From: a virus
Lineage: Duplodnaviria > Heunggongvirae > Uroviricota > Caudoviricetes
IMG/VR virus record: IMGVR_UViG_2724679237_000005
Span: 44,631-108,630 of that record
Direction: 5' to 3' (one strand)
DNA: 64,000 bases
Part shown: positions 22,648 to 46,400 of the stretch, piece after piece
How positions within the stretch are numbered: the stretch's first letter is position 1
Layout: every line of letters begins with the position of its first letter
The notes under the pieces: generated by a model
Told to the model about the DNA's origin: nothing
Databases searched by the model: none
Seen by the model: only the letters and a program-made list of their open reading frames with translations
Made by a program: the position numbers and the translations under genes

Positions 22648-22854
22648 CGCTCCTGACTCTACTAGTTGCTGTAGCAATACTTTCCCTTTATCAGTTAACT
22701 GGTAGTTGGCCGAACACTTCGTTTCAGAAACGTTTGCAACCAACCCTAACCGCTCTAACTTAGCCCGCGTTTTAGGCTTCCAGTACTCAGGGAACTCTGA
22801 CCACTTACTGATTTCATGAAGTGTTTCCTTCTCCCGTTTACTTAATACGATCAT
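22639..22854 (-). CDS. hypothetical small protein (71 aa)
   Basis: ORF; stop overlaps start of the next gene (ATGA). Confidence 0.45.
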   Translation of the reverse strand: MIVLSKREKETLHEISKWSEFPEYWKPKTRAKLERLGLVANVSETKCSANYQLTDKGKVLLQQLVESGALK

Positions 22855-23017
22855 CCTTAATCTCCTTCACGGTGTTGGTTATTTCTACAATGCGATAAAT
22901 ACGACCGCGTCTTTCTATAACACCGCTTTTAATGTAGTCATTGATGCAACTGGACATCACCACAATACCTATGAAAAAACCAACTGCTAAAAATGCAATC
23001 ATCCAACCGAGCATCAT
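22838..23017 (-). CDS. small membrane protein (59 aa), below ORF-track cutoff
   Basis: GGAGATAAAG Shine-Dalgarno then ATGATG at complement 23012-23017; hydrophobic MMLGWMIAFLAVGFFIGIVVM. Confidence 0.35.
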   Translation of the reverse strand: MMLGWMIAFLAVGFFIGIVVMSSCINDYIKSGVIERRGRIYRIVEITNTVKEIKDDRIK

Positions 23018-24870: not shown

Positions 24871-25653
24871 TTACCAACTTCCCCAGCTAATCATCTTGCG
24901 CTGATCGCTTTCTAAGCGATAGGGGGCAAGAAGCTCTGTGACATGATTGGTGGCGTATGATTTAGCCTCTTGCTCTATCATCGGTAATTCGTTAGCAATC
25001 CTGACCATCTTCCCAGCAAATTCCGCCATTACGCCATCACATGCCTTACCCGCATCAACAACGATATGCACCAGATCCAACTGGCTTTTGCACATGTCCC
25101 AAAGAGTCGAATATTCGCTCTCCCTGATTAGGTTTACAGCATCATTAGCCCCTTTATTAATCAAAACCTCCAACAGATTTGTCGGGGTGACGAAATCGGC
25201 TTTCAGAGACAATGTTGGTTCAGCTTTTACCGACAGCAAGTAATCTTCAAAGTTTTGCTTGTCTTCCAGCAAAGCTAAACTACGCATAGCTCGAATTGAT
25301 TCTCGAATAACGGCTTCAATATGTTCGTCACCTGGAGGACAGATAATAGTATCTGTATAGATGACTCTGCCATCAAACCACGCCCCAACCTGCACTTTTA
25401 GAGTTCGTAAGTTTTCTTTGCGTACAAAAACAACTAATGCAGAACGTCGTGCATGTGCAGGTTCGCCCCATACGCACAACTTAACCTTCAGATAAGGTAG
25501 CCCCGGTAGAGGGATCTCGACCAAACGAGTGGCGATATGATCCATTGCCGTATTGACGGCTTTTTCAATGATGTCTAGCCGATTGCTCTCGCTGATTTCT
25601 AAACCAGTTTTATCAATGATGTTGCAGGCTAATCTCTTAATTTCTTCTTTCAT
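24871..25653 (-). CDS. hypothetical protein (260 aa)
   Basis: ORF with upstream ATAAGTA-type motif; no recognised domain. Confidence 0.5.
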   Translation of the reverse strand: MKEEIKRLACNIIDKTGLEISESNRLDIIEKAVNTAMDHIATRLVEIPLPGLPYLKVKLCVWGEPAHARRSALVVFVRKENLRTLKVQVGAWFDGRVIYTDTIICPPGDEHIEAVIRESIRAMRSLALLEDKQNFEDYLLSVKAEPTLSLKADFVTPTNLLEVLINKGANDAVNLIRESEYSTLWDMCKSQLDLVHIVVDAGKACDGVMAEFAGKMVRIANELPMIEQEAKSYATNHVTELLAPYRLESDQRKMISWGSW

Positions 25654-25778
25654 ACCAACTCCTAGCTAACGGATGAAAGTATTCTTACAAAAACTTAAGT
25701 ATGTATCTACTTATCATTTTAGATGCAATAGTTCTTTATACTAAGATGCCGGGCATATCCTCAGCCCAGCATTCACCT

Positions 25779-26192
25779 TTAATGAGCTACAGCCTCACTG
25801 TTGCACATCTTTCTGTAGACCTGCTTATAACGCTGTAAATCATGAGGATCATTAGGTGCCAACGACTTCGATAGGATTTTGTATACCACCCCTTTTGAAA
25901 ACATGCCCTTTGGCTTCATTTCGAGTTCAACAACATATGAGTGATAGCCCACGTATGCACCAAAGCCATTTTTGGCGTTTAATTCACCACACACAAAGCC
26001 TGTCACACTCCCATCATCATGATCAGTCCTGACAAACTTATCTTTCCTAAACATCACCGACGTGGGATCTTTCATATCATCCGCAATTGCCTGTTGGCCC
26101 AGAGTAATAGCCTTCTCGTCTGTAGGCTTACACCCAACTAATGCAAACAAAGACAATAAAGCACCTGTTAAAATCAACTTCTTTTTGCTCAT
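25779..26192 (-). CDS. lipoprotein (137 aa)
   Basis: Signal peptide with lipobox LVGC (MSKKKLILTGALLSLFALVGC). Confidence 0.55.
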   Translation of the reverse strand: MSKKKLILTGALLSLFALVGCKPTDEKAITLGQQAIADDMKDPTSVMFRKDKFVRTDHDDGSVTGFVCGELNAKNGFGAYVGYHSYVVELEMKPKGMFSKGVVYKILSKSLAPNDPHDLQRYKQVYRKMCNSEAVAH

Positions 26193-26422
26193 TTTGACTT
26201 CCCTTTATTTATATTTATCGTAGGTATTAGTTAACCAAAACACGAGCCGTGTCACAATAATTCCATAGCTCATTATCTCTATCGGTGATTAATATCACAT
26301 CAACTTTACAGTCCATAAATTAAATTATCAAAGCTGACAGATTAACTAAATTTAAGTACCCTTTTCGCACACTTGACGCTTGCCGCGTCTAAACTATTCA
26401 TCCTATATCAACAGAAAAAAAC

Positions 26423-27568
26423 ATGAAATACATAAAACCTTCATCGTTGCTGGCATTAACTTTGCTTTTTAGCTCTGGATTCGTTAACGCAGACAATAAA
26501 CAAACGCTGATAGAAGCCGCTAACGCAGGTGATACCGCAGCACAAAGTGAGTTAGGGACAAATTATTTGGATGGTGTCAATGGTTTTGATAAGGATGTAG
26601 TTGAGGCCAAGAAGTGGATTGATCTCGCTGCAGAAAAGGGAGATAAAGTAGCATATTATGCACTTGGAGTTATGTACACATTTGGCGAGGGTGTAGATAA
26701 AGACCTAAATAAAGCTGTTGAGTACTACAAACTTGCGGGGGATGCTCGTGAAGGTAGAGCCTACAACAATCTTGGTGCTATTTATCAAAAGGGGATGCTT
26801 GGTAAAGTAGATCATGCACTCGCCATTAAATACTTCAAACTAGCCTCTGATGCCGGGTATGTTAAAGCAACTTCAGTTCTTGGGGCGTATTACCAATATG
26901 GTAAAGGCGTTCAAAAGAATTATAAAAAGGCTTTTACTTATTACAAAAAGGCGGCAGACCAAGGCAGTTCAGAAGCTATGATAGGATTAGGAATACTATA
27001 CGATGATGGGTTAGGCGTTAAACGCAATGATGCAGAAGCAGTTAAGTGGTATAAAAAGGCAGCGGAACTTGGAAACGCCGACGCCATAACCAATCTTGGC
27101 ATTATGTATGAGAATGGGGAAGGAGTAAAAAAGGACTATAAAAAAGCAGCCGACCTTTATCAGACTGCTTGCAATAAAGGAGAAAAAAGAGGCTGTGAAT
27201 ACATTACTGAACTGAAAGAAAGCGGAAAATATCGAGTATCTGATTCCAAAGCCAAATCAAAATCAGATGTACAGCGACTTATTGCTAAATCCATTGATAA
27301 AGGCGTTAACGCAACTTTTACCTGGCAAGGTGATGACGCCACATTCACCGCTAATGGCGGCAAAATTGACTGCACTTTCCTAAAGGATTTTTCAGAGAAA
27401 GGAGGCAATCTGGCTACCTCGTTTGTTTGCACCGATAACGTTCAAATCATCCTGAAGCAATTCAGAGATACCAAGAATGCCTACCTCGCGGTAATGACTG
27501 ACAACTTCAACACAGAAGTTAAATCATTTTCGGTCAATGTTTACGTGACTAATACTGGTTCAAACTAA
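26423..27568 (+). CDS. secreted Sel1-repeat (TPR-like) protein with unknown C-terminal domain
   Basis: Signal peptide then at least six Sel1-like repeats (e.g. AYYALGVMYTFGEGVDKDLNKAVEYYKLA, AMIGLGILYDDGLGVKRNDAEAVKWYKKAA); plus-strand, lower GC. Confidence 0.7.
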   Translation: MKYIKPSSLLALTLLFSSGFVNADNKQTLIEAANAGDTAAQSELGTNYLDGVNGFDKDVVEAKKWIDLAAEKGDKVAYYALGVMYTFGEGVDKDLNKAVEYYKLAGDAREGRAYNNLGAIYQKGMLGKVDHALAIKYFKLASDAGYVKATSVLGAYYQYGKGVQKNYKKAFTYYKKAADQGSSEAMIGLGILYDDGLGVKRNDAEAVKWYKKAAELGNADAITNLGIMYENGEGVKKDYKKAADLYQTACNKGEKRGCEYITELKESGKYRVSDSKAKSKSDVQRLIAKSIDKGVNATFTWQGDDATFTANGGKIDCTFLKDFSEKGGNLATSFVCTDNVQIILKQFRDTKNAYLAVMTDNFNTEVKSFSVNVYVTNTGSN

Positions 27569-28813
27569 TGCTGCTATGCCTTTTACCTTGCTTAAAAGTT
27601 CAAGCTGTCGTGAGTAAGGTTTTGCGCAATAGTAGGCTTTGATAATCTTCCCCGGTGTCGCATCGCCGGGGTCGAGTCCTTCCTCGCCCAAACACGCAAC
27701 TTTGACATTAAGACCGATACTGGTCAGTCGCCTGGCTGCGGCCATAGTGTTGCGTATAGCTTGCTTTTCACTATCCCACATCATGATCACATTACGTAAC
27801 CCACGCGCCTTGAGCGTCAGGAACGCGCCTAACTGATCTTCTGCATCCTGAGTGGTGTTACCAGATAGATGCATCCCGAACGTTCCTATTGGTTCCACGT
27901 AATCACGTAATGTTTCTTCGTCAAAAATAGCTCGTTTAACCCCCATAACATCGAACGCCCCCTCACAGACAACTACAGTCTGTTTGCCGACTGCATTATG
28001 GCCGTTGTAGAGAAACTTACCTGAAGCTGGAAGCTGCATAGGAAAGAGGTAGCGGCGTTCTGCTGTACCGGTAATGTCTCGTCCCTGAAATGTCTTCATT
28101 ACCCCATCCAGATCGTAAACCGGTATCAGTATTCGCATATCGAATATCTGCCCTTTTACCTGATCTGTATACGGATCTACATAAGCGTGCTTGCCTTCGA
28201 CGCAGTATCGTAGGTCAAAATACTTTGCCATTTCAGGTGATATGTTTCGTTCAACCAGATAGTCTGGAAGACGGCCATCTATAGGAAGCTCGTAATGACG
28301 AGGGAGTGCAACTGGCCCCTCTAACTCGACTGTGCTTGCAAGCACTAGCTCTTCTTTCTTTGGTGCCCACCCCTGGGAAAGAAGGGCGTTCTGCACATAT
28401 TCCTCGAACTGTCGTCGTGATTTGCCGCTGTAGTGCTTGAGGAAGACCAGCTTATTGAACTGAATCTCTTCGGGATGATCACCAGCGAAGCATTTACCGA
28501 CGCCACTGGTCAGATTGAAATATACCTTCCAGTTGGAGCTGCCGCATACCGGACACTCTTTGATATTCACTTCACGACCGCGAGCACTCACGCCTCCACG
28601 TCGATAAACGATACCTTCAGTATCCAACCATTGTTCAAAATCTAATTCGGCAATTAGCTCTTTCAGCTCGCTCACGATAATTCCACTTTTAACAGGCAAT
28701 ATTGTGACCAACCTAAATGTTGATATAACATAAAGGCTCATGTGTTTTTCTTTTGTGGTTTGGCAAAAGAAAAGTTGTTTCACCAATGAATCAAGCGTGG
28801 AGGTGTTCTCCAC
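27560..28813 (-). CDS. DNA primase (zinc finger plus TOPRIM)
   Basis: CPVCGSS...CFAGDH zinc-binding motif and TOPRIM VVVCEGAFDVMG; track start is GTG inside a hairpin, true start uncertain. Confidence 0.65.
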   Translation of the reverse strand: MENTSTLDSLVKQLFFCQTTKEKHMSLYVISTFRLVTILPVKSGIIVSELKELIAELDFEQWLDTEGIVYRRGGVSARGREVNIKECPVCGSSNWKVYFNLTSGVGKCFAGDHPEEIQFNKLVFLKHYSGKSRRQFEEYVQNALLSQGWAPKKEELVLASTVELEGPVALPRHYELPIDGRLPDYLVERNISPEMAKYFDLRYCVEGKHAYVDPYTDQVKGQIFDMRILIPVYDLDGVMKTFQGRDITGTAERRYLFPMQLPASGKFLYNGHNAVGKQTVVVCEGAFDVMGVKRAIFDEETLRDYVEPIGTFGMHLSGNTTQDAEDQLGAFLTLKARGLRNVIMMWDSEKQAIRNTMAAARRLTSIGLNVKVACLGEEGLDPGDATPGKIIKAYYCAKPYSRQLELLSKVKGIAALV

Positions 28814-30958: not shown

Positions 30959-31065
30959 CTGGTAGGTAGTTACTTACTTATCACAATGAGCGGATGATAG
31001 CGACTGGTGGCAGTTTTTGGAAGTGGAAACGGAAGGGAGTTGTTCTGGTGGTGTCTTTTAAAAGA

Positions 31066-31120
31066 CCTGCTTCCGTATATATTTAATAAGTTACTTATTA
31101 TTTATATATACAGAAGCAGG
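31066..31120. repeat. 55-bp AT-rich near-perfect palindrome with GC clamps
   Basis: CCTGCTTCCGTATATATTTAATAAGT / ACTTATTATTTATATATACAGAAGCAGG; lies in divergent intergenic region between the 249-aa gene and the GIY-YIG gene. Confidence 0.6.
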
Positions 31121-31230
31121 CATAACTTGTCGTCTTAGACGCCCAGAAGCTCTACACTTTGAGCCTGTTAAATTGATTAAAACCTATGTGTAAAATAGAA
31201 CGCATTAGTCAGTAGCAAAGAGATGCAATA

Positions 31231-31998
31231 ATGGACGATTTATCGGTATACGCGAGATCATTGGATAAGGCTAAATACTATGTTTACTGTCTCTATGATA
31301 CAGAAGACAAGATGAAAAGACCGTTTTACATAGGAAAAGGCAAATCGACTCGTTGTCTCGATCACATCAAGTATCCCGATGACTCTCCCAAATCCATGCG
31401 GATCAAAGAACTTTTGGCTAATAAAAAATTAGGCATAGATATTCTTCGTCATGGTATGGATGAAACCACAGCCAAACTTGTTGAGGCGACATGCATCGAC
31501 CTTATGGGGGTCGGAGAGCTTACGAATAAGGTTCGAGGAAGTGGTTCCATGATGGGCAGAATATCACTGGACGCCTACCATCACTTAGTGCTGCAAGAGG
31601 AAACTGAAATTGCTCCTGAGCACGCCGGTCTTGCCTTCCTGCTAAACAGCACCTACAAGTCAGGAATGTCCGCTCTGGCATTATATGAAGCTACGCGTGG
31701 CGTATGGGCAAAGGTTCCAAGAGACGAGAATCTCAAATATGCCTACGCTACATATGGTGGGCTGATAATGGAAGTTTATCAGATTGAATGCTGGGTCAAA
31801 GCCGGTTCTCAGCAGTACTTTACAAGGGATATAGCTCTTGGCCCCGACACAAAACGTTATGAATTTGTTGGCAGAATAGCCGATGAGCATATTAGAAAAC
31901 TGTATGTAGGCAAATTAATCAAGAAGCCACCAAGCTACGGTAGCCCTTTTGTGAAGGTTGGGATGGTTAGGACTGAACATAGTGTTAGCGCGGCATAA
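31231..31998 (+). CDS. GIY-YIG nuclease domain protein (free-standing homing-endonuclease-like)
   Basis: YVYCLYD...PFYIGKGKS...R...E motif arrangement of GIY-YIG domain at N-terminus; plus-strand, own terminator. Confidence 0.6.
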   Translation: MDDLSVYARSLDKAKYYVYCLYDTEDKMKRPFYIGKGKSTRCLDHIKYPDDSPKSMRIKELLANKKLGIDILRHGMDETTAKLVEATCIDLMGVGELTNKVRGSGSMMGRISLDAYHHLVLQEETEIAPEHAGLAFLLNSTYKSGMSALALYEATRGVWAKVPRDENLKYAYATYGGLIMEVYQIECWVKAGSQQYFTRDIALGPDTKRYEFVGRIADEHIRKLYVGKLIKKPPSYGSPFVKVGMVRTEHSVSAA

Positions 31999-32014
31999 AG
32001 CTGACACTGTAGTT

Positions 32015-32052
32015 ATGCATTGGCGCAATGTACGCGCCAATGCATGATTTTT
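32015..32052 (+). terminator. rho-independent terminator after GIY-YIG gene
   Basis: ATGCATTGGCGC-AATGTAC-GCGCCAATGCAT perfect 12-bp stem followed by GATTTTT. Confidence 0.55.
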
Positions 32053-44600: not shown

Positions 44601-46400
44601 GATGCGAACGCGCATAGGTTCGAGATCTGGTTCTGTAATTGTCCAGACACCGTTCAAAACAGGCGTTTCCGCTGACGACAGGGCTTTTGAAAACGTAACC
44701 TTTGTTATGTTTTCGCCAGTTTCAAGAACATCGCGTTCAACGATTTTGCCTTCCTGATTCAATATCCGAATAAAGCTGCCGCTTTTAGCTAACGACACAG
44801 GCGCATCGAGAGTGATGCTGTTTTTGGTAAACTCCACAATTCGACCGGAGTTACGTTTACCTGCACGATATTTGTTCTGAATCAGAACGGTTTCACCAGG
44901 CATCAGAAATGAGGCGTCTAAGCCGGCAGTAAATGTAATTACATCCGACTCCATTCTGGCGGTATACAAAAGCCACAAACCAACTCGGTGAGCCTGGCCT
45001 CGGCTTGTACATCCAAATGCTACGACTTCTGTTTTACGCTCACCATAACGGCGCATTGCGTCCTGATCTTCAACGTATTCGATGTTTTGCTTATAACCGT
45101 CCTCCTTGTTGTTGTAGGTTACGAGCGCAACGGATGGGCGATCTTTACGCGCAGAACCTTTATAGGTAAACAGTCCATCTTTGACGTTGGAGTTGGTAAA
45201 CATCATTACCGGATCTGATGGGCTATCCTGCATGATGTTAACCATGCCACCAGCCCAAAACACCATGCCGCGGAATGCACCGGCAATATCCTGAATTAAT
45301 CGGTATGCGTCTTGTCGACTGGTGATCTGCGTATTGATTGCAAAGCGTTTCTCTTTACCCCCAAAGCCATCATCGACCTCTTCGTCACAATATCGACCAA
45401 TCTGGTAGAGCTGGCCGAGGTCAATCATGGATTCCGACACAAATTGCCCAAGACCATACCGAGTATTGGTAAGCAAATCGTAGAGAATCCACGCAGGGTT
45501 TGAAGAAGACAACAGCTTAAAAGTACCGTCCCATACGCCGACATAAGTATTGGTGTATTCGTTGTAGTTTGACGGTACTCGGATTTTGATACCGCGCACC
45601 AAATACGAACGGGAAGGCATTGTGCTACCAAACTGCTCTGAATTGACCTTCAAGCCAACAAGAGCAGAGTTAGGGTAGTTCATTGGCGTGTCGACAATCT
45701 CACCTATGGAATCAACCCATGTGTCGTTGTAGAGGTACTGGCTACTGTTATCATCTGTAAGACGAATCACCCTAACCTTGTATGCACGACCAGGCTTAGG
45801 TAGTTTCAGCTCATAGCTACGGTAATACACGCCTGTTTTCTTTGCCGTTAGCGTGATATCAACGCTTTTTTCACCTTCAGCGACCACATCTACAAATGTT
45901 GAGTCGCCATTTGCTATCTGGAACTTGTACTCAACAGTCGTACCGTTCGTGTCACCAGTTTTTTTATCTATGCTTCGCAAAGAAGGAAACTTCATGATGA
46001 CACGAACCCGATCAGCTTCATCGTTATCGATTGAAACCGTTACATAATGTGTTTTTTTTAACTGGATATTGACGGATTTAGGCGTTTCAACGAAATCAAA
46101 GCCAGACATTGGAGTCTGGTCTTGTGAACCGTCGCGAAAATCCCATGTGATTCCGCTGAAGTTGGAGGAACCGTCTTCATTTACAATCGGCAGATCGTCG
46201 ATAAAAATAGATCTTGCGCCATTTACTAAGCCGCCAATTACCCCTTCCCCAAGAAGATCGAGGATAGCGGCCATTGCACGAGAATTTACGGTATCGTCGG
46301 CTTCAACCGGTGTACGGCTGGAGCTTTTGCTGCTTTTTTTACCACCCGCACCGGCAATAAACAGCGGTAGCTTTTTCTTCTTGAACTGTTCCATGTTCAA
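41667..46400 (-). CDS. J: central tail fibre / tip attachment protein J-like
   Basis: Strong similarity to lambda J core (ALVGLKVNSEQFGS, AFGCTSRGQAHRVGLWLL, KYVAGIALGIDT...SQFLV); contains a run of 33-aa coiled-coil repeats. Confidence 0.8.
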   Translation of the reverse strand: MNMEQFKKKKLPLFIAGAGGKKSSKSSSRTPVEADDTVNSRAMAAILDLLGEGVIGGLVNGARSIFIDDLPIVNEDGSSNFSGITWDFRDGSQDQTPMSGFDFVETPKSVNIQLKKTHYVTVSIDNDEADRVRVIMKFPSLRSIDKKTGDTNGTTVEYKFQIANGDSTFVDVVAEGEKSVDITLTAKKTGVYYRSYELKLPKPGRAYKVRVIRLTDDNSSQYLYNDTWVDSIGEIVDTPMNYPNSALVGLKVNSEQFGSTMPSRSYLVRGIKIRVPSNYNEYTNTYVGVWDGTFKLLSSSNPAWILYDLLTNTRYGLGQFVSESMIDLGQLYQIGRYCDEEVDDGFGGKEKRFAINTQITSRQDAYRLIQDIAGAFRGMVFWAGGMVNIMQDSPSDPVMMFTNSNVKDGLFTYKGSARKDRPSVALVTYNNKEDGYKQNIEYVEDQDAMRRYGERKTEVVAFGCTSRGQAHRVGLWLLYTARMESDVITFTAGLDASFLMPGETVLIQNKYRAGKRNSGRIVEFTKNSITLDAPVSLAKSGSFIRILNQEGKIVERDVLETGENITKVTFSKALSSAETPVLNGVWTITEPDLEPMRVRIVNIAQGETPGSFDITAVENNPSKYEAIDNGATLIPQNTTVLDPTYSKPSNLQITEGTYLSSPGNLSVKLTATWEGKSPEYWISWRRSDENNVSNWQSARVTEEQYEIVNVAENGRYDFQLYAVSFNGKKTEIISTVYQVLGTMTPPDAPTSLTAVGDYRNVILNWVNPDSVDLDHINVYASQTNNLDTAKLIAESASTTFTHAGLGDSETWYYWVRASNKRGMLSPPNSNLGTEATTRDVLSFLAGKITSSELGQALLEDINSKASQEAVDELNEHINQSVESLEGSVNDVKEDIAELDKQFSDNLAGFEIKFNERSDALENAQTELKGEVSATIDKVNEAFEKIDATDAAIVEIENTVSEHDKALANTVEAIKAARDEAAALIAKESEARVEGDAANAKQLEVLQSTVEESSAAVEEMKKTVAEVDRASAELTTNIEALAKTNIDLALRQDEDQHKQMVNNAKIATTQKTFADDMSAMATKVEEIRVEIGEDIKASILEESTARADGDEALAKRVTQLQSKFEGDISAAISTEQEARTSADEALTTQITQLESKVSNDIVAAIKEEQEARATEDSALASQITQLQAKVDDDISAAIRSEQEARASGDSALAKQINQLQSKVDGDISAAITQEQEARASADQALSREINSLRAQTGTDIAAAVAVETKARTDADSALSTQISSLTAKANDLEASLARETTARADGDTALTKEVSSLKAQTAKDISAAVAVETQARTDADSALSSQITKLTSQYKEDIKAAVATETKTRTEQDAALATQITNLESQTAANISAAVTTETTARTQADNALSGRIDTLKAEVDGNTATIQQQATAIADTNKKVSTAWTLKMETSTSGGQKYVAGIALGIDTTGLSQFLVQADRFGLVNSVNGKITTPFVIENSIAYMNGAYIKDGTITNAKVGDLQSTNFVSGRSGWRFGKNGTLEINGNSGGNGRLVINGQRIDVYDDNNVLRVRIGLL

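Follow-up and report, generated by a model that had tools for sequence, protein, structure and literature searches.

Two separate cargo genes for predicted envelope proteins in one variable slot of an SSU5-like phage-plasmid

Phage-plasmids of the SSU5 supergroup form a large known set of enterobacterial elements in which the phage core is conserved and the accessory genes are variable (PMC7969092). The DNA analyzed here, a 64,000-nucleotide stretch of IMG/VR record IMGVR_UViG_2724679237_000005 (positions 44,631 to 108,630; hereafter the window), is, judging from its sequence, an SSU5-like phage-plasmid of E. coli, and its relatives include Salmonella phage SSU5 and the E. coli phages PhiR41_1 and Cyrano. 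It carries, in an accessory slot between ligase-side genes and a primase gene, two divergently oriented genes, one encoding a predicted lipoprotein of 137 amino acids (aa) and the other a signal-peptide-bearing Sel1-repeat protein of 381 aa. In the papers found on SSU5 and phage-plasmids, the term Sel1 is absent, and so, in those searched further, are tetratricopeptide, lipoprotein and this slot.

Morons such as HK97 gene 15, bor and lom of phage lambda and the accessory genes of P2 are optional genes set between conserved, collinear ones; their base composition differs from that of the flanks and their products are targeted to the envelope. The same holds for the two genes in the window, for whose products envelope targeting is predicted, and both have relatives at classic moron sites of other temperate phages. 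What differs is that two such genes lie in one slot, on a plasmid-prophage and beside replication genes. Morons are recognized by absence from collinear relatives, deviant base composition, a promoter and terminator of their own and expression from the repressed prophage (PMC3594210); the first two of these features are found here. Neither protein is related in sequence to gp15/YebO, Bor or Lom, as judged by the absence of a Pfam match.

For the lipoprotein, the described counterparts are Llp of T5, Cor of phi80/N15/T1-like phages and Rtp45 of Rtp. Like them, it is a small lipoprotein encoded by a phage, and it is predicted to reside in the outer membrane's inner leaflet and to face the periplasm. 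Llp (on FhuA) and Rtp45 (on LptDE) bind the periplasmic face of the receptor and thereby prevent phage adsorption (PMC9586334, PMC12685063). The family to which the lipoprotein in the window belongs is likewise often encoded beside tail or receptor-binding genes. On the other hand, its mature part of about 117 aa is about twice the size of Rtp45 (stated to be about 6 kDa), their folds differ from its cystatin/NTF2-like fold, and neither sequence nor Foldseek similarity to Llp, Cor or Rtp45 was detected. Searches for homology to Llp, Cor, Rtp45, Bor, gp15/YebO and TraT yielded no match in Pfam (E ≤ 0.1), NCBIfam or PADLOC. As every membership test failed, the likeness to these exclusion proteins is not one of homology but one of location, size class and genomic habit.

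The Sel1-repeat protein shares a signal peptide and an alpha-solenoid of Sel1-like repeats (SLRs), with strong repeat matches, with the SLR proteins EsiB, HcpB/HcpC, Oxalobacter SLR, Sel1E and PA5087, and its last repeat has the Cys-x7-Cys pair of the Hcp proteins. None of these proteins shows its highly conserved C-terminal domain (CTD) of about 110 aa, and it differs further in being encoded by phage-plasmids and prophages.

Independent gain and loss of the two genes

The two genes are independent morons sharing one slot, and not a functional or co-inherited pair. The slot contains the following features (window positions; nt, nucleotides; a slash within a motif marks the cleavage site):

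25680..25718, no strand: conserved block (TATTCTTACAaAAAcTTAAGTATGTATCTACTTATCATT) of about 40 nt, left edge of the slot, just upstream of a 260-aa gene
25779..26192, minus strand: lipoprotein gene, 137 aa
26133..26192, minus strand: predicted lipoprotein signal peptide and lipobox (MSKKKLILTGALLSLFALVG/C), as read from the sequence
25782-26132, minus strand: mature part of the lipoprotein, residues 21-137, helix, four-stranded sheet and helix of cystatin/NTF2 type
26193..26422, no strand: AT-rich intergenic region between the divergent genes, 230 nt, 33% GC
26334..26362, plus strand: candidate sigma-70 promoter of the Sel1 gene (CTGACA, 17 nt, TACCCT)
26423..27568, plus strand: Sel1-repeat protein gene, 381 aa
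26423-26491, plus strand: Sel1 signal peptide
about 26492-27232, plus strand: seven Sel1 repeats
27233..27565, plus strand: Sel1 C-terminal domain, about 110 aa, no known family
27560..27598, minus strand: 3'-terminal part of the primase gene, bounding the Sel1 module on the right, with variant last 12 or so codons

The slot is empty in PhiR41_1, Cyrano, CMS-2020a and a large number of plasmids, where only 75-80 bp separate the 260-aa gene from the primase and a 1.86-kb segment is missing. The lipoprotein gene occurs alone in the slot of Salmonella plasmid pZ1322HSL0038-2 (62% identity) and the Sel1 gene alone in Citrobacter (417 aa) and in E. coli pG749_2 (345 aa), while the slot of SSU5 and K. 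oxytoca holds the unrelated SSU5_041 family. A sulfatase and an anaerobic sulfatase maturase adjoin the primase of E. coli p1919D62-2 (locus L027, 1-2701) as alternative, metabolic cargo. Moreover, plasmid pTLYA-2 combines a near-identical lipoprotein gene (synonymous divergence, dS, 0.012) with a Sel1 allele that is one repeat longer and has a dS of 0.76. Two plasmids bear deletion scars (CP088502.1, about 73538-73760; NZ_AP027538.1, about 159245-159467) in which 3' remnants of both genes abut beside the primase, indicating that a once-complete pair was lost there. Other copies are broken by the insertion sequences ISSen4, IS26, IS1 or IS100 on otherwise intact plasmids.

These comparisons show that each gene is optional, that each is independently gained, lost and recombined, and that both are dispensable for virion production in relatives. 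The initial annotation had described the genes as a moron pair; the moron character of the cargo stands, whereas the pairing does not survive the lipoprotein-only and Sel1-only states and the dS contrast in pTLYA-2. The single-gene states and pTLYA-2 further indicate that the divergent intergenic region shared by the genes (230 nt, 33% GC), whose AT-rich character had been recognized from the start, is a by-product of two insertions.

Over a 3.5-kb segment (window 25000-28500), plasmids pRM9975-1 and NZ_CP028430.1 match the window with 99.6% identity. The slot is flanked on one side by the 260-aa gene, a 160-aa gene and DNA ligase and on the other by a DnaG/Toprim primase, in agreement with the placement first proposed, between ligase-side genes and primase. 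A primase of this type was found in 253 of 5,426 complete E. coli genomes, 62 of which also have the cargo, plasmid-borne in every case. In PLSDB, 91 plasmids carry the Sel1 tail domain and 81 the lipoprotein. The view that the segment is accessory rather than core replication or structural DNA is borne out by this patchy distribution (62/253), by its absence from collinear relatives including PhiR41_1 and Cyrano, and by its low GC content (0.402 for the cargo and 0.330 for its intergenic region, as against 0.448 and 0.474 for the flanks and 46% for the window); conservation of the genes as core genes of related phages, which would have spoken to the contrary, is not what was found, the slot being empty in virion-forming relatives.

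In an alignment of five slot states (both genes, lipoprotein only, Sel1 only and two empty), the block at 25680-25718 is common to all and the sequences part immediately to its right. At the opposite edge, the 3' ends of the Sel1 and primase genes overlap by 9 nt (27560-27568), with the same annotation in relatives. Where the Sel1 gene is present, the primase ends in ...LELL[SA]K[VI]KGIAAL[VL] (KGIAAL type), and where it is absent in ...LELQSKVLGIKAL[SVL] (LGIKAL type). This covariation of the last 12 or so primase codons with Sel1, seen across genera, places a recombination boundary of the Sel1 module inside the primase gene. No convincing direct repeats were found at the cargo edges as an insertion signature.

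Rfam returned nothing in the intergenic region (26193-26422), and no terminator was found after the Sel1 gene. The hexamers and spacing of the candidate promoter at 26334..26362 are kept in the Sel1-only version of Citrobacter (CTGACA-17-TAACCT) while its surroundings have diverged, which weakly suggests that it may serve as the Sel1 promoter.

The convergent arrangement at the right edge bears on the alternative that the genes serve the life cycle of the phage-plasmid itself, in lysis or envelope remodelling, in tail penetration or in antisense read-through control of the primase. In every case the Sel1 gene runs 9 nt into the primase gene; it accompanies a specific primase C-terminal variant and is followed by no detectable terminator; in addition, genes of the lipoprotein family often lie within tail modules, some of them encoding SPOR domains. 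Nevertheless, both genes are missing from viable phages of this group, which makes such a role unlikely; moreover, the slot is empty in most relatives and copies disrupted by insertion sequences persist on otherwise intact plasmids. Taken together, we consider this alternative improbable.

A further alternative holds that the reading frames are decaying passengers without function. Frequent loss, insertion sequences and deletion scars in the slot would fit this idea. Selection argues otherwise, however. Across eight plasmid copies, the ratio of non-synonymous to synonymous divergence (dN/dS) is 0.03 for the lipoprotein gene, with 11-12 synonymous and 2 non-synonymous changes, and 0.19 (0.13-0.23) for the Sel1 gene, compared to 0.32 for the flanking 260-aa gene and 0.05 for the primase in the same copies. 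Such strong purifying selection largely refutes decay. Moreover, the reading frames of both genes are intact in dozens of plasmids at 91-100% identity, and cysteines and motifs are invariant across genera. Both are real functional genes under purifying selection, and there is hardly any chance that they are functionless.

Several neighbouring features were noted in passing. The longest open reading frame (ORF) of the primase (window 27560-28813, minus strand) starts at the GTG at 28813 and encodes 417 aa; for near-identical plasmids, RefSeq has it begin at the counterpart of 28675 (371 aa, VSELKE...), and the PhiR41_1 primase is annotated with 393 aa. Directly 3' of the DNA ligase gene lies a 59-aa ORF with a hydrophobic N-terminus (window 22838-23017, minus strand), the counterpart of which in relative L029 is annotated as 'after-plasmid-ligase protein AplA'. 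To the right of a 249-aa gene, a further variable cargo slot is found at about 30960-32050 of the window (plus-strand ORF 31231..31998), which in relatives holds a DUF2971 protein, a P-loop NTPase or other genes. Finally, the Escherichia whittamii chromosome (locus L013, 4700-6970) contains a captured chunk of an SSU5-type plasmid between chromosomal genes and beside a transposase-like fragment, comprising a 5' remnant of the lipoprotein gene, the intergenic region, a Sel1 gene for 419 aa and a primase with an internal deletion. From their ORF starts, we take the neighbours of this chunk to be yciB, yciA and an IS3-type transposase.

The lipoprotein and its family

The N-terminus of the lipoprotein, MSKKKLILTGALLSLFALVG/CKP, reads as a basic n-region, a hydrophobic core and a lipobox (L-V-G-C), and agrees with the signal-peptidase-II pattern [LVI][ASTVI][GAS]C near residues 15-25. 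Homologs keep the GCKP motif without exception. In the Lol pathway of E. coli, Asp at position +2 of a lipoprotein is the retention signal. As the +2 residue is Lys and not Asp, this rule predicts sorting to the outer membrane, and the protein is accordingly predicted to be lipidated and outer-membrane-sorted. At the level of fold, and not of family, it resembles the periplasmic cystatin, NTF2-like and VirB8-like domains, from which it differs by an additional C-terminal helix bearing a conserved cysteine. The QxVxG motif of cystatins is absent from its sequence; identification as a protease inhibitor of the cystatin superfamily was rejected on account of the missing QxVxG hairpin and the lack of family-level similarity. 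No Pfam family was matched at E ≤ 0.1, nor was any PADLOC entry.

A 27-nt inverted repeat, 70% complementary, was observed on either side of the lipoprotein gene (window 25780-25806 and 26249-26275), with a 10-nt exact core, TAATGAGCTA; it may have arisen by chance.

A word-indexed homolog search with the lipoprotein returned five proteins only. When 1.84 billion representatives were scanned in full with HMMER, on the other hand, a family of 1,311 clusters emerged at E ≤ 1e-3. Its members, which are mostly 110-140 aa long, share the consensus LKDPxSAxF...VCGEVNAKNxFGAY, and a lipobox is present in 45 of 60 members sampled. A few are fused to SPOR (peptidoglycan-binding) or SH3 domains. The family is covered by no Pfam family, and the source names of its clusters read 'hypothetical protein' throughout. 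Two-domain versions of 274-289 aa were also observed (P0144 and P0146, from Providencia and others), on contigs of 97-110 kb that are comparable in size to SSU5-like plasmids.

Family members are found in 14 deposited phage records, and those records whose context was examined look temperate. In the P2-like SEN4/SEN5 the gene lies between ogr and int, and at the apparent edge of an Enterobacter prophage it lies beside an Ogr/Delta gene. In Fraca, LMessi and Pseudomonas AUS531phi it is placed between K-like and I-like tail assembly genes, the AUS531phi copy being a SPOR fusion, and in Klebsiella phage vB_VIPKPNMC05 between the tail chaperones and the tape-measure gene (the tail-module genes map to L019 3501-3743, L030 2992-3339, L032 2980-3633 and L031 2707-3228). 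The chaperone/tape-measure position is that of HK97 gene 15 (gp15), the founding moron and an exclusion gene (PMC3594210). Judged by these gene orders, the lipoprotein family recurs at classic moron sites of temperate phages.

The Sel1-repeat protein and its C-terminal domain

The Sel1 protein begins with a standard Sec signal peptide ending in a V-N-A cleavage motif (MKYIKPSSLLALTLLFSSGFVNA/DNK, as read from the sequence). Its repeats match Pfam Sel1 (PF08238) with 175 bits (cutoff 30.7, E 1.1e-52) in six stretches, and an AlphaFold2 model of residues 23-266 contains 14 helices, corresponding to seven repeats, in an alpha-solenoid with a predicted local distance difference test score (pLDDT) above 90. 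Repeats above the Pfam gathering threshold and a solenoid of helix pairs together identify it as an SLR protein. The gene products initially annotated, a 137-aa lipoprotein on the minus strand and a 381-aa Sel1 protein with a signal peptide on the plus strand, are thus confirmed as to reading frames, export signals and repeats. Alleles of 345, 381 or 417-420 aa differ by repeat number. Two database assignments were rejected: the PADLOC hit is a repeat-level match to an N-terminal segment of PtuA only (profile positions 6-54), so that membership of this defence system does not apply, and the NCBIfam hits MerG, MotX, AlgK and ExoR lie far under their cutoffs and reflect the repeat consensus only.

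The most conserved part of the protein is the C-terminal domain. In an alignment of 14 sequences from Escherichia, Pseudenterobacter, Pantoea and others, invariant columns are found at residues 285-373; C317 and C336 in this domain are invariant, and the last repeat contributes C250 and C258, which are nearly so. Conserved cysteines in even number would fit a periplasmic, disulfide-bonded protein. As had been stated from the sequence at the outset, no recognizable motif follows the repeats: Pfam gave no match, eight members gave nothing below E 0.07, and a profile search of the PDB returned a single chance match (E 0.75). A relationship of this domain to the lipoprotein family was not found either (hhalign probability 0.3%).

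A word-indexed search with this domain returned five proteins only, and tblastn gave no match among 50,697 deposited phage genomes. The whole protein aligns from end to end with phrog_8741 (E 6.6e-205), a family presumably derived from prophage or plasmid records; all seven PHROG matches are of 'unknown function'. Genes with the domain are carried by Pantoea megaplasmids and by a Leclercia prophage, in the latter immediately after the tail J and tail-fibre genes. A Pseudenterobacter homolog, 55% identical over its full length, sits in an island where small ORFs and transposases accompany fragments of CdiA-type toxins (Fil_haemagg_2, PT-VENN).

This last setting is in line with the possibility that the Sel1-CTD protein is an orphan immunity protein against a toxin acting in the periplasm or envelope, delivered by a type VI secretion system (T6SS) or contact-dependent inhibition (CDI) or as a bacteriocin, the lipoprotein perhaps being a second, unrelated protective factor. 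A host of the phage-plasmid would in that case withstand the weapons of neighbouring bacteria. PA5087 (PDB 5jkp), which we take to be a member of the Tli5b immunity proteins of Pseudomonas, is among the PDB sequence matches. Sel1E of K. pneumoniae is a proven T6SS immunity protein against VgrG4 and likewise has a C-terminal extension that cannot be assigned (PMC7108748). However, generic SLR proteins match far better (E 1e-90 to 1e-60) than PA5087 (E 9e-13), whose match probably reflects the repeat consensus only, and the domain was not found in Klebsiella in any search made. An SLR immunity gene of a T6SS would be expected beside its cognate effector (vgrG, Tle or PldB), whereas the neighbours here are replication genes; no T6SS, CDI or toxin gene adjoins the Sel1 gene in phage-plasmids, Pantoea or Leclercia, and only in Pseudenterobacter does it lie among CdiA fragments. 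An orphan immunity function is for these reasons unlikely.

The same PDB matches bear on another alternative, in which the Sel1 protein is released, for instance via vesicles, as a host-interaction or virulence factor that binds a protein of the animal host, in a lysogenic conversion towards colonization. E. coli EsiB, Legionella LpnE/EnhC and the Helicobacter Hcp proteins are SLR factors of host interaction. Among the PDB sequence matches, EsiB/c5321 of E. coli CFT073 (4bwr; E 6.8e-64) ranks second and HcpC and HcpB also appear, the Hcp-like Cys-x7-Cys pair can be read in the last repeat, and carriers were isolated from the gut, blood and urine of many animals. Against this, the similarity is limited to generic repeats, every match ending by residue 265 or so, and the most conserved part of the protein, the C-terminal domain, is absent from such factors. 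Additionally, the only export signal is one for Sec, nothing points to secretion past the periplasm, and some relatives are found in Pantoea and Leclercia, which are associated with plants and the environment. A released virulence factor seems quite unlikely on this evidence.

Envelope-level protection of the carrier as a proposed role

We favor, with some reserve, the reading that the slot contains two separate morons and that both products are envelope binding proteins protecting the carrier. In the analysis as a whole, envelope-level protection of the lysogen, for example by superinfection exclusion or toxin immunity, emerges as the most likely function. Going by sequence rules, the lipoprotein would be anchored in the outer membrane with its compact cystatin/NTF2-like binding domain facing the periplasm, while the Sel1 protein would be freed into the periplasm by cleavage at VNA/D and may be stabilized by two disulfides, C250-C258 in the last repeat and C317-C336 in the tail domain. 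Both proteins would then bind at the envelope of the plasmid-prophage carrier and protect the cell. The lipoprotein could act as a clamp on an outer-membrane protein from the periplasmic side, or stop the phage tail at some step of its penetration (compare T5 Llp, Rtp45 and Cor). The Sel1 solenoid could be an adaptor for the conserved tail domain, which would serve as effector or anchor and be presented to a target in the periplasm, for instance a component of an infecting phage or a toxin taken up from outside.

Some observations weigh against this proposal. Generic promoter and terminator matches in the region are not above shuffle expectation. Where Salmonella has the lipoprotein gene alone, this gene follows the primase gene after 56 nt and shares its strand, so that it may be read with the replication genes rather than from a repressed prophage. 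Finally, in a full-length AlphaFold2 run with 14 sequences, the C-terminal domain reached a pLDDT of 30-50 only, which renders a fold search with it not meaningful.

A more far-reaching version, in which the lipoprotein family is a new, widespread class of phage envelope blockers and the Sel1 protein a second new periplasmic protection factor stacked in the same slot, is tentative and seems to us doubtful; if true, a single phage-plasmid slot would stack two novel envelope defences.

As it stands, the cargo is moron cargo of an ordinary kind, and both proteins are uncharacterised. Two modest points are of note: a lipoprotein family that is abundant, unnamed and exclusion-like in its genomic habits, and a Sel1 tail domain that is conserved but unclassified. 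Phage-plasmids related to SSU5 occur commonly in E. coli, Salmonella, Enterobacter, Citrobacter and Klebsiella and alter their hosts through their variable cargo, and the slot described here is a clear case of a recombination hot spot that gathers genes for envelope proteins. If either protein protects against phages or bacterial toxins, the few envelope-level exclusion factors would gain a new family, and the finding would be relevant to phage therapy against strains carrying such plasmids; otherwise, the genes would be routine accessory cargo.

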